Shown here one piece after another: positions 4,000-5,871 of a DNA stretch of 6,362 bases. A program made the position numbers and the translations under genes. The notes below the pieces were generated by a model. The model saw only the letters and a program-made list of their open reading frames with translations, ran no database searches and was not told where the DNA came from. Position 1 is the stretch's first letter, and each line of letters opens with the position of its first letter. The DNA is from a virus (lineage: Duplodnaviria; Heunggongvirae; Uroviricota; Caudoviricetes): positions 1-6,362 of the IMG/VR virus record IMGVR_UViG_2541047121_000018; one strand, written 5' to 3'.

Positions 4000-5408
4000 A
4001 GAATTAAGAGAGCATCGTCCGGATCAAGAGATGAGAGGAAATCGTCGGGTTCTTTGAGCATTGCCCGACCGATCGCCATAATCAGCGCAACCGCACCATC
4101 GATTTTGTTTTCCGCCTGCTCCTTGACAGGCTTCACCACATCATCGTTACCCGGAATGGTTTTGCCGACCACGTTGCCGATACACCAGGTCATGATGGGA
4201 TTGCCGTCATGATGAAAGCGCCCCGATTCAATCGCCGCTTCCAGCTCTTTCATCGGATCGGACATGTTGGTGTAGTTCTGAATGATGGTGATGGGGTTCA
4301 GGTCTTCATCAGCAAGGTCATGCGACAGCCCGGTCGCCCCGAAGGGGTCGATGGGTGACTCACTGACCGGGCTGATTTTGTTCGCCGCTTTGGCCTCCTC
4401 GAGGATGTACCGATAATCCACCTCCGCACCAGCGGTAACAGTCAGAACGCCCATTTCCACCCATTTCTGAAAGCGTTCGGCTGTCCGGCGATCTTCATTT
4501 TTCTCGACGCTGTACACCGTGTCATACGGTACCCAGAAACGCGGGGCCACACTGTAGTAATGCGTTTTACCGTCAATCTCGCGGGTATAAAGTCGCGCCA
4601 TGCTGTTCATATCCAGCTTACGCGCCAGGTCAAAGGCCAGAATGCACGGCTGCCCCTCGAACTGCTCAAGGGTCAGTGATTTATCCTCGCAGCTCTGCCA
4701 GCTCACCAGGTTGAAATACGCCGAACGCGCCGACACCCAGATATTGAGGTGTTTTGTTTTAAAGACGTTTGCCAGACGGGCGTTATTTTTCGCACGCTGC
4801 TGCTGACTTAACAAAAATTCGCGATAAACCGACACGCCAATATTTGGATTGGCTTTTTCCAGCACCTGCGGGTCGATCCAGTCGTCACCTTCATCAACGG
4901 TATAGATGATCCCGAACAGTTCATCGTTGGGTACCGAACCGTTGAGCATCTCGATAACTTCCCGCCGCTTGTCGTAGCACGGCCCCTCAATGTTGTACCC
5001 GGCGGTGGTGATGGCCCACATCAGTGGCTGACGTCGCGCCCCCATCCCGGTAAGCATCGTGGTATAAAGCGCATCGGTGGCGTGCTCGTGATATTCATCC
5101 ACCACCGCACAGTGGGGTGATGAACCATCACCAGGGTTACCGATCAGCGGTTCAAACCGCGCACCATCCTCCGGACGGTTCATGTTTGAGGCGTTAACCT
5201 CAATCCCGAACGCTTCCGTCAGCATGGGTGTGCGTTTACACATCAGTCGTGCCGGACGAAAGACTTCCCATGCCTGTTTCTCCGTCGTGGCACCGGAATA
5301 CACTTCCGCGCCGAACTCGGCAGGCTTTTGGGGTTCGTGGTGGCATATGTACTCCAATGAAGAAGCTACCGACATAGCCTCCTCCATTCGTCGTGAAACT
5401 ATTTTCAT
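3996..5408 (-). CDS. phage terminase large subunit (Terminase_1/HK97-like family), apparently N-terminally truncated: Walker B and motif III present, Walker A region absent; probably non-functional
   Basis: The 470-aa translation contains AVVDEYHEH (Walker B-like hhhhDE) at ~98-106 and ITTAG (ATPase motif III-like) at ~132-136, followed by a long nuclease/C-terminal domain. No G(x4)GK[ST] occurs upstream of Walker B in any frame, and the codon directly upstream of the ATG at 5406-5408 is an in-frame TAG. No terS lies upstream. Confidence 0.8.
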
Positions 5409-5466
5409 CTACCCAGTAATGAATTCTTTGAAGAGTTGTAATCAATACAACTCGCTAATGGAGAGG

Positions 5467-5488
5467 CTTGTCTCACACGTGAGACAAG
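5467..5488. repeat. perfect palindrome CTTGTCTCAC-AC-GTGAGACAAG (10-bp arms) in the terminase-bor spacer, followed on the + strand by a T-rich tract (CTTCCTGTTTGATTT)
   Basis: Checked base by base: positions 5467-5476 are the exact reverse complement of 5479-5488. Function unknown; it could be a protein-binding site, a transcription terminator-like hairpin or a recombination junction relic. Confidence 0.5.
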
Positions 5489-5568
5489 CTTCCTGTTTGA
5501 TTTACTGGACACTATAGAAGGACAGAATGCCTTCCTCACTCGAATCACATCAATTAAGGAGGTTCAAC

Positions 5569-5691
5569 ATGTTTCATTCCACAAGTCATCAGGCTGTAAT
5601 TATGGCAGCATCAGTTTGTGCCACAGACCTTTTCCGCTTCACTTTGAGCCTGATTCATTTCTACCTGACCGGCTCGCCTCTATCTTTTTAA
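5569..5691 (+). CDS. candidate small ORF, 40 aa (MFHSTSHQAVIMAASVCATDLFRFTLSLIHFYLTGSPLSF), with a near-consensus Shine-Dalgarno; function unknown, possibly the relic start of a lost gene
   Basis: AAGGAGG at 5556-5562, a 6-nt spacer, ATG at 5569-5571, TAA at 5689-5691. It lies in an otherwise non-coding AT-rich spacer and is co-oriented with bor. No family recognised. Confidence 0.3.
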   Translation: MFHSTSHQAVIMAASVCATDLFRFTLSLIHFYLTGSPLSF

Positions 5692-5871
5692 TCCCCGCTT
5701 TATCCAAATTGCATTGCCAGAATGCCGACAACAGACTGACATTCAAATCCTGACTACCTCCAATAGTCTGACCGTACACCTATATAGTTTTAATTTTCAT
5801 CAATCCATTTAACTATCGTTTAATTGTTGTCACATAGGATTCTGCCGTTTTTAACAATGCAGGATAATAAG

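Follow-up and report, generated by a model that had tools for sequence, protein, structure and literature searches.

The window analyzed here is the whole of a 6,362-nucleotide stretch of viral DNA (IMG/VR record IMGVR_UViG_2541047121_000018, positions 1 to 6,362), and it spans the genes from lysis to head of an SfV-like cos prophage of the HK97 type, located at thrW in Escherichia coli O157:H7. It matches, as a single colinear piece, positions 1099734-1106095 of the chromosome of CV261 (NZ_CP040316.1), a stx-negative O157:H7 strain from cattle (PMC7175801; PMC8046923), within a prophage of ~37 kb that is an SfV-like myovirus integrated next to tRNA-Thr (thrW), downstream of proA. The window and the CV261 RefSeq sequence differ at 8 positions, all within an insertion sequence (IS) at window 4..55, and the other ~6300 bases are identical; because the mismatches are confined to the IS, the window probably derives from a different assembly or from a sister isolate, with the contig running into another variant of the IS copy. 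The region of interest lies between the lipoprotein gene bor (also annotated as iss) and the gene for the large terminase subunit (terL), where an earlier examination of the letters alone (hereafter, the sequence-only reading) had placed a deletion junction. Coordinates outside the window refer to the CV261 prophage (L003), the corresponding loci of strains MA11 (L004) and NZRM3614 (L009), the CV261 element SpLE1 (L008) and assembly GCA_012554945.1 (L016); genome comparisons cover 5426 complete E. coli genomes from RefSeq.

The open reading frame (ORF) delimited mechanically at 3996..5408 on the minus strand (470 amino acids) contains the Walker B motif (AVVDEYHEH) and motif III (AITTAG), both identical to those of intact homologues, and lacks a P-loop. 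In this ORF, the Pfam family TerL_ATPase (PF03354) is matched at profile positions 51-174 of 178, compared with 1-174 in the intact homologue, and TerL_nuclease (PF20441) at positions 4-286 of 286 (E = 4e-33), so that the RNase H-like nuclease domain is complete in the remnant. Codons 1-137 of terL are missing, and the surviving part starts at E138 of the intact protein, i.e. residue 31 of the 470-residue ORF. The missing part includes the Walker A motif IPRKNGKS (residues 115-122 of intact TerL), which aligns with IARKNGKT of HK97 TerL (6Z6D), K118 and K121 corresponding to HK97 K57 and K60; in HK97, mutation of either of these lysines abolishes ATPase activity and packaging (PMC9410871).

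The first 30 residues of the 470-residue ORF are the leader and the first codons of an HNH endonuclease gene read in another frame, rather than terL sequence, and the remnant has no native start codon. Gene callers start it at ATG 5375, borrowed from the HNH leader, which yields a product of 459 amino acids; PGAP annotates it as an incomplete 'terminase large subunit' with the N-terminus missing, from window 5318. Exact-protein look-ups found the 459-residue product on record and returned no record for the 470-residue and 463-residue versions. Residues 12-30 of the longer ORF (window 5319-5375, minus strand) match the N-terminus of phrog_10207, a family of 49 residues and 'unknown function'; evidently, phage annotation includes a small ORF lying across the HNH start in a different frame, and its ATG 5375 is the one from which the truncated terL is called. 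The sequence-only reading was correct about the absence of Walker A, and its own test, a profile alignment that might have found the ATPase domain fully contained in the 470 residues, gave only the partial match described above. Its identification of the 470-residue protein as a terminase stands from residue 31 onward and fails for the preceding 30 residues, and its estimate of ~80-100 missing codons falls short of the 137 counted by alignment to the intact 577-residue TerL.

Matches in the phage collection switch sharply at window 5318/5319, with SfV-type terL over 3996..5319 and lambdoid Rz, bor, spacer and 'homing endonuclease' sequences over 5318..6362. Thousands of E. coli genomes match the bor side as far as 5312 and then run into an HNH endonuclease gene, and the join itself is spanned by CV261 only among the complete genomes. 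At the same site, MA11 and NZRM3614 (NZ_CP032793.1) have the intact order iss - spacer - HNH - small terminase gene (terS; P27/Terminase_4) - terL (577 amino acids) - portal, and the NZRM3614 locus is intact through the connector and closure genes. The segment comprising HNH, cos, terS and the 5' part of terL is at least 80% present in 1107 of the 5426 genomes.

In a three-way alignment, the window agrees with the HNH side as far as the octamer CGAGTTCG and with the terL side from CGAGTTCG on. In NZRM3614, this octamer occurs only twice in the interval, at L009 9582 and 10932, with a spacing of 1350 bp; the two copies occupy HNH codons 10-12 and terL codons 137-140, and one copy is kept in the window (5312-5319). 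On the two sides of the junction, the arms of the window, of 1051 bp and 4973 bp, match NZRM3614 with 100% identity; given this identity and the spacing of the repeats, the window is the NZRM3614 sequence minus one repeat-to-repeat unit of 1350 bp. The hallmarks of a microhomology deletion are thus all found, namely, the repeat at both parental endpoints, a single copy in the product and colinear flanks. Chance is a poor account of this junction: the probability of an 8-bp overlap at a random join is ~1e-4 under our own approximation, (k+1)/4^k.

The same comparison bears on the possibility that the junction is a recombination joint between two phages, a lambdoid one on the bor side and an SfV-like one on the terL side. 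The two halves of the window do match different phages (bor-side matches are to lambdoid vB_EcoS phages, terL-side matches to SfV, SfI and SfII), and SfV itself has no bor gene. However, bor, the spacer and SfV-type HNH-terS-terL already occur together, as an intact mosaic, in many genomes, NZRM3614 and MA11 among them, and the zero mismatches between the window and NZRM3614 minus the 1350 bp rule out such a joint, to which we accordingly assign a negligible probability.

The deletion junction that the sequence-only reading had proposed is confirmed by NZRM3614, MA11 and SfV, all of which have HNH-cos-terS-terL (577 amino acids) in this place, and the intact relatives have 1350 bp more between bor and terL rather than the same short spacing. 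The breakpoint itself had been set near 5380-5410, ~70-90 bp away from its actual position at 5312-5319, which also falls 11 bp outside the interval 5330-5871 assigned to the junction, and the 12-codon HNH remnant at the junction had been overlooked.

Tests for the components of an HK97-like cos packaging module, i.e. the HNH gene, the cos site and the small terminase gene, were negative for all three in the window. The deletion takes out HNH codons 13-116 and with them the HNH motif (in the homologue, residues 66-112), and what remains is 35 nt, i.e. 11 2/3 codons beginning with ATG 5346, the genuine HNH start, which has GGAG five bases 5' of it. This remnant reads past the junction into terL out of frame and reaches a stop at 5236, giving a junk peptide of 36 residues (the ORF listed at 5236..5445). 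On the MA11 locus, the termini of the SfV genome record meet at L004 22276/22277, which falls within the deleted interval, and the cos boundary so located lies 58 bp past the HNH stop and 67 bp ahead of the terS start. The terS gene (Terminase_4, phrog_83; L004 22344-22838, L009 10031-10525) is wholly within the deleted interval; the absence of both terS and cos, claimed from the letters alone, is accordingly upheld. In MA11, a G/C-rich inverted symmetry, GGGGCGGG ... CCCGCCCC, surrounds the cos boundary (22276/22277, within L004 22245-22300), as a cosN-type nicking site would be expected to show. The features of the window are collected in Table 1.

Table 1 Features of the window, with the evidence for each.
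Feature	Position in window	Strand	Evidence
Rz (rzpD) spanin gene, 3' part, end of lambda-like lysis cassette	6197..6362, runs off window	-	PGAP rzpD L003 19243-19704; Rz annotation in phage matches
bor/iss lipoprotein gene, 97 amino acids, intact, opposite strand to late genes	5872..6165	+	PGAP 'iss' WP_000738423.1
bor-HNH spacer, native, low GC	5347..5871	none	100% identity to NZRM3614
HNH endonuclease remnant	5312..5346	-	HNH starts L004 20555 / L009 9555 = window 5346
Deletion junction, single copy of CGAGTTCG	5312..5319	-	Three-way alignment
terL pseudogene, codons 138-577 and stop	3996..5319	-	Alignment to 577-residue proteins; Pfam, PHROG, PGAP
Spurious 5' extension of the 470-residue ORF	5320..5408	-	Frame arithmetic; PHROG terL match from residue 31
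Small conserved ORF, 53 amino acids, intact, between terL and portal	3838..3999	-	phrog_7105 9e-22; WP_000838374.1 in CV261, MA11, NZRM3614
Portal gene, intact	2622..3848	-	Pfam Phage_portal 2.9e-98; WP accession same as in intact relatives
HK97-family prohead protease gene, intact	2027..2629	-	Pfam Peptidase_S78 4.9e-41; PGAP
Major capsid protein gene, intact	787..2016	-	Pfam Phage_capsid 3.1e-65
Head-tail connector gene, intact	385..708	-	Pfam Phage_connect_1; PGAP L003 25193-25516
Head-closure gene, first 14 codons, severed by IS1203	347..388	-	Alignment to uninterrupted MA11 site
IS1203/IS629 copy, one end	1..346	-	IS end TGAACCGCCCCGG starts at window 346

A junction found in a single complete genome could reflect a collapse or a misjoin in one assembly, and an exact search for the junction pattern among metagenome contigs likewise gave no match. 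The public assembly index, however, holds the exact 459-residue product in 30 blocks, and the junction was read in at least 24 contigs, namely CV261, several independent NCBI drafts and Logan assemblies of read sets, one contig being present in 14 samples; the 36-nt junction string was identical in all 10 of the loci fetched, which represent at least 7 assemblies or read sets that are independent of one another. The assemblies with the deletion, roughly 30 in number, include GCA_009433135.1, GCA_012576325.1, GCA_011851405.1, GCA_038074995.1, GCA_039902665.1, GCA_012554945.1, GCA_011860805.1 and SRR4897610. In addition, the difference between the window and the CV261 RefSeq sequence at the 8 IS positions points to a separate assembly, and the junction is flanked by the 8 bp only, with no long repeat. 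The identical junction in independent assemblies rules out an artefact, the chance of which we put close to nil, and shows that the deletion is the marker of a sublineage.

The prophage carries a second lesion. In CV261 and in one further locus (L019), an IS1203 copy interrupts the head-closure gene behind codon 14, the target site apparently showing an overlap of 4 bp. The majority of short-read contigs end at this point; among the complete genomes, the insertion is found in CV261 only. In assembly GCA_012554945.1, which has the junction, the connector/head-closure site is uninterrupted and the tail genes follow downstream. Thus, the deletion preceded the IS1203 hit at window 1..346. A single event combining the excision of an IS with its local hop into the closure gene is ruled out by the same assembly, which carries the deletion without that IS. 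In a sister clade, the same packaging module was disabled independently, by an IS1203 in the HNH gene (1310 bp, with a CCA target duplication; L004 20686-21995 in MA11), which is found in MA11 and 18 other complete genomes.

We consider it highly probable that the packaging module of this O157:H7 SfV-like prophage was deleted between the 8-bp repeats, that the deletion was inherited in a sublineage and that one branch was later hit by IS1203. In mechanistic terms, the 1350-bp segment would have been lost by recombination between the two direct repeats, one copy remaining, and the origin of the deletion is most likely RecA-independent and dependent on short homology; the likeliest route would be an event of this kind in an IS-free parent, via replication slippage or microhomology-mediated joining of a break. 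Several points weigh against this interpretation or limit it: slippage, break repair and an IS-linked event are indistinguishable from the product; the presence of IS1203 inside the deleted interval in the sister clade makes an IS-bearing parent possible; and the packaging defect that we attribute to the deletion rests on homology to HK97.

The IS-linked route would start from a parent with HNH::IS1203, as in MA11, from which the IS was excised by its transposase together with the IS-excision enhancer IEE; resection by 96 bp leftward and 1249 bp rightward would have been followed by microhomology rejoining at the 8 bp, with 2663 bp removed in all. The HNH::IS1203 insertion does lie wholly inside the deleted interval in the 19 complete O157:H7 genomes that have it, all five project siblings included. 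The IEE of CV261 (L008 101-2461) is identical to the characterised Sakai protein ECs_1305 (786/786), and IEE performs microhomology-mediated end joining and has been tied to deletions adjoining IS629 (PMC9943667; bioRxiv 10.1101/2023.06.07.543989). The phylogenetic evidence runs in the other direction: the nearest described relative, NZRM3614, is intact and IS-free at this locus, CV261 groups with NZRM3614 in cluster 1b and not with the IS-bearing cluster 1a (PMC8046923), and at the single informative single-nucleotide polymorphism (SNP) in the prophage CV261 has the NZRM3614 allele and not that of MA11. Most of the 69 records that are at least 99% identical are IS-free, with 19 carrying the IS, and no remnant of an IS survives at the junction. 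The IS-linked route further requires three events (insertion, precise loss in NZRM3614 and imprecise loss here), compared with two for the IS-free route. By parsimony, a short-homology deletion in an IS-free parent is therefore favoured, with reasonable but not high confidence, and the IS-linked route appears unlikely. If the latter were true, the junction would be a natural example of IEE-type microhomology deletion, a mechanism that has already been described.

Two further observations concern these loci. The IEE of CV261 (L007 49900 onward; SpLE1) is named 'TOTE conflict system archaeo-eukaryotic primase domain-containing protein' by PGAP, and a search by name would miss it. The SNP comparison of the prophages is nearly uninformative, 17 kb yielding a single SNP and a single indel of 1 bp. 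In the upstream 9.6 kb (L003, L014 and L015 compared with L009), a 1-bp indel relative to NZRM3614 is common to CV261 and another deletion-bearing assembly, and could serve as an extra lineage marker; MA11 has one substitution there instead, and its PerC-family gene product has a different protein accession.

By analogy with HK97, the prophage would be unable to cut or package its own DNA, because cos, TerS, the HNH protein and both essential ATPase lysines are gone; in HK97, the HNH protein gp74 is required for cos cleavage by TerL (PMC9410871). The sequence-only reading had reached the same conclusion, which this biochemistry supports, and had allowed for an escape by means of a helper's terminase. 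This escape is closed for cos-specific packaging, which a helper terminase cannot rescue since the site of cos recognition and cleavage has been deleted as well. The separate terminase that it had proposed to look for was not found as a second SfV-type terL copy in the CV261 chromosome, where one place only matches window 4900-5900, a search that did not extend to unrelated terminases genome-wide. The lysis, bor and head genes were correctly described as open frames, and the bor product matches Pfam Lambda_Bor (PF06291) over positions 1-75 of 75 (E = 7.5e-31), with the lipobox LITGC present in the translation. These intact frames are 100% identical to those of the relatives, which, at the level of the sequences compared, indicates that their preservation reflects the recency of the deletion and not selection.

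The retention of a long open frame in terL across the sublineage, with a complete nuclease domain profile and a GGAGG upstream of ATG 5375, could also be taken to mean that the truncated gene is functional, its 459/470-residue product packaging with the help of another prophage in a satellite-like manner or acting as a free nuclease or a dominant-negative inhibitor; the defective prophages of O157 are reported to interact (PMC2669165). Identity of 100% to intact relatives, however, makes the open frame a sign of recency and not of purifying selection, and the well-spaced ribosome-binding site (RBS) is that of the out-of-frame HNH start. Moreover, with cos and terS gone, cos-specific packaging of the element is impossible, both essential Walker A lysines are absent, and the prophage later took a further disruptive IS hit. 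We regard a functional product as very improbable. The same holds for the more specific conjecture that the truncated TerL, expressed from the late transcript with ATG 5375 as its start, is a domesticated fragment retained as a phage-exclusion factor against SfV/HK97-type phages or as a stand-alone nuclease, which strikes us as quite implausible.

The lesion is ordinary prophage decay by a textbook short-direct-repeat deletion, in O157:H7, a lineage noted for the decay of its prophages and for the activity of IS629; the terL remnant is already labelled as a pseudogene in RefSeq. It records the stepwise decay of one O157:H7 prophage, in which the packaging module was lost before the head-closure gene was hit by IS1203. 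The junction could be used for typing, and its wider significance is small. It also illustrates an annotation pitfall, in that a 459-residue 'terminase' matching both Pfam domains could lead completeness tools to score the element as packaging-competent.

One of the closest characterized systems is SfV (NC_003444), the packaging module of which consists of HNH (orf53), cos, terS (orf1) and terL (orf2). The terL remnant shows 96.5% DNA identity to SfV orf2 (~94% for the protein), and the intact prophage has the SfV gene order HNH-cos-terS-terL-portal-protease-capsid. Like SfV, the O157 prophage is integrated adjacent to thrW (in CV261 and MA11), the attachment site of SfV too. Unlike SfV, the O157 prophage has a lambda-like lysis cassette, bor and a spacer of ~525 bp ahead of the HNH gene, and the window is deleted for HNH codons 13-116, cos, terS and terL codons 1-137. 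HK97 TerL (6Z6D) belongs to the same family (PF03354 and PF20441; phmmer E = 1e-24), and the resemblance includes, in the intact TerL, the RKNGK[ST] form of Walker A with its two essential lysines, as well as the need for an HNH protein as partner in cos cleavage (PMC9410871); the window copy differs in that it begins past Walker A, so that only Walker B, motif III and the nuclease domain are left. Compared with NZRM3614, the window is 1350 bp shorter and has the additional IS1203 in the head-closure gene.

With respect to mechanism, the deletion resembles the classic spontaneous deletions between short direct repeats in lacI of E. coli, reportedly described by Albertini and colleagues in 1982, in that the endpoints lie in a direct repeat of the 5-8-bp class, one copy is kept and the size is in the kilobase range; it differs in coming from a natural isolate, with the mechanism seen only through its product. 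The deletions associated with IEE/IS629 excision in enterohaemorrhagic E. coli O157 (Kusumoto 2011, cited in PMC9943667) share with it the organism, IS1203v/IS629, an identical iee and a microhomology junction. Unlike in those deletions, this lineage has no demonstrably ancestral IS at the site, which is free of any IS in its nearest relative.

The stretch between the 470-residue ORF and bor (5409..5871) has a GC content of 35-46%, and a TAG (5411..5409) immediately precedes ATG 5408. This TAG, Walker B, motif III and the AT-rich gap of ~460 bp had all been noted by the sequence-only reading and are present in the sequence. Its suggestion that the AT-rich DNA lies where cos and terS should be is right insofar as the packaging genes are lost, and wrong for the stretch itself, which, to judge from its conservation in lambdoid and SfV-like prophages of thousands of E. 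coli, is the normal bor-HNH spacer and not a deletion scar. The spacer contains a hairpin at 5463-5492 on the plus strand, with a perfect 13-bp stem, GAGGCTTGTCTCA...TGAGACAAGCTTC, and a T-rich tail behind it on the bor strand (dG -23.2 kcal/mol, z -4.2), which is kept with the spacer in many prophages; in structure, it looks like a terminator for transcripts that head towards bor, antisense to the late genes. A scan of 5200-5950 for sigma-70 promoters found no promoter-like site, and no RNA family of Rfam matched anywhere in the window at gathering thresholds. An ORF of 40 codons in the spacer (5569-5691, plus strand) has a near-consensus RBS (AAGGAGG, 6 nt, ATG) and corresponds to a hypothetical protein in phage vB_EcoS-640R1; searches of PHROG and Pfam with its product gave no family. 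An ORF of 46 codons on the minus strand (5639-5779), called in the assembly index, conflicts with this call.

The 53-residue ORF between terL and the portal gene encodes a hydrophobic product, overlaps both neighbours and is present in all relatives, with a weak match to a 'membrane protein' moron family. Elsewhere in the prophage, the early region of CV261 contains an extra insertion of the IS3 family (L003 7600-8813) at a place occupied in MA11 by a small hypothetical gene, and the tail-fibre segment beside the pinE invertase is seemingly in opposite orientation in CV261 (L003 37597-39815) and MA11 (L004 38947-40203).

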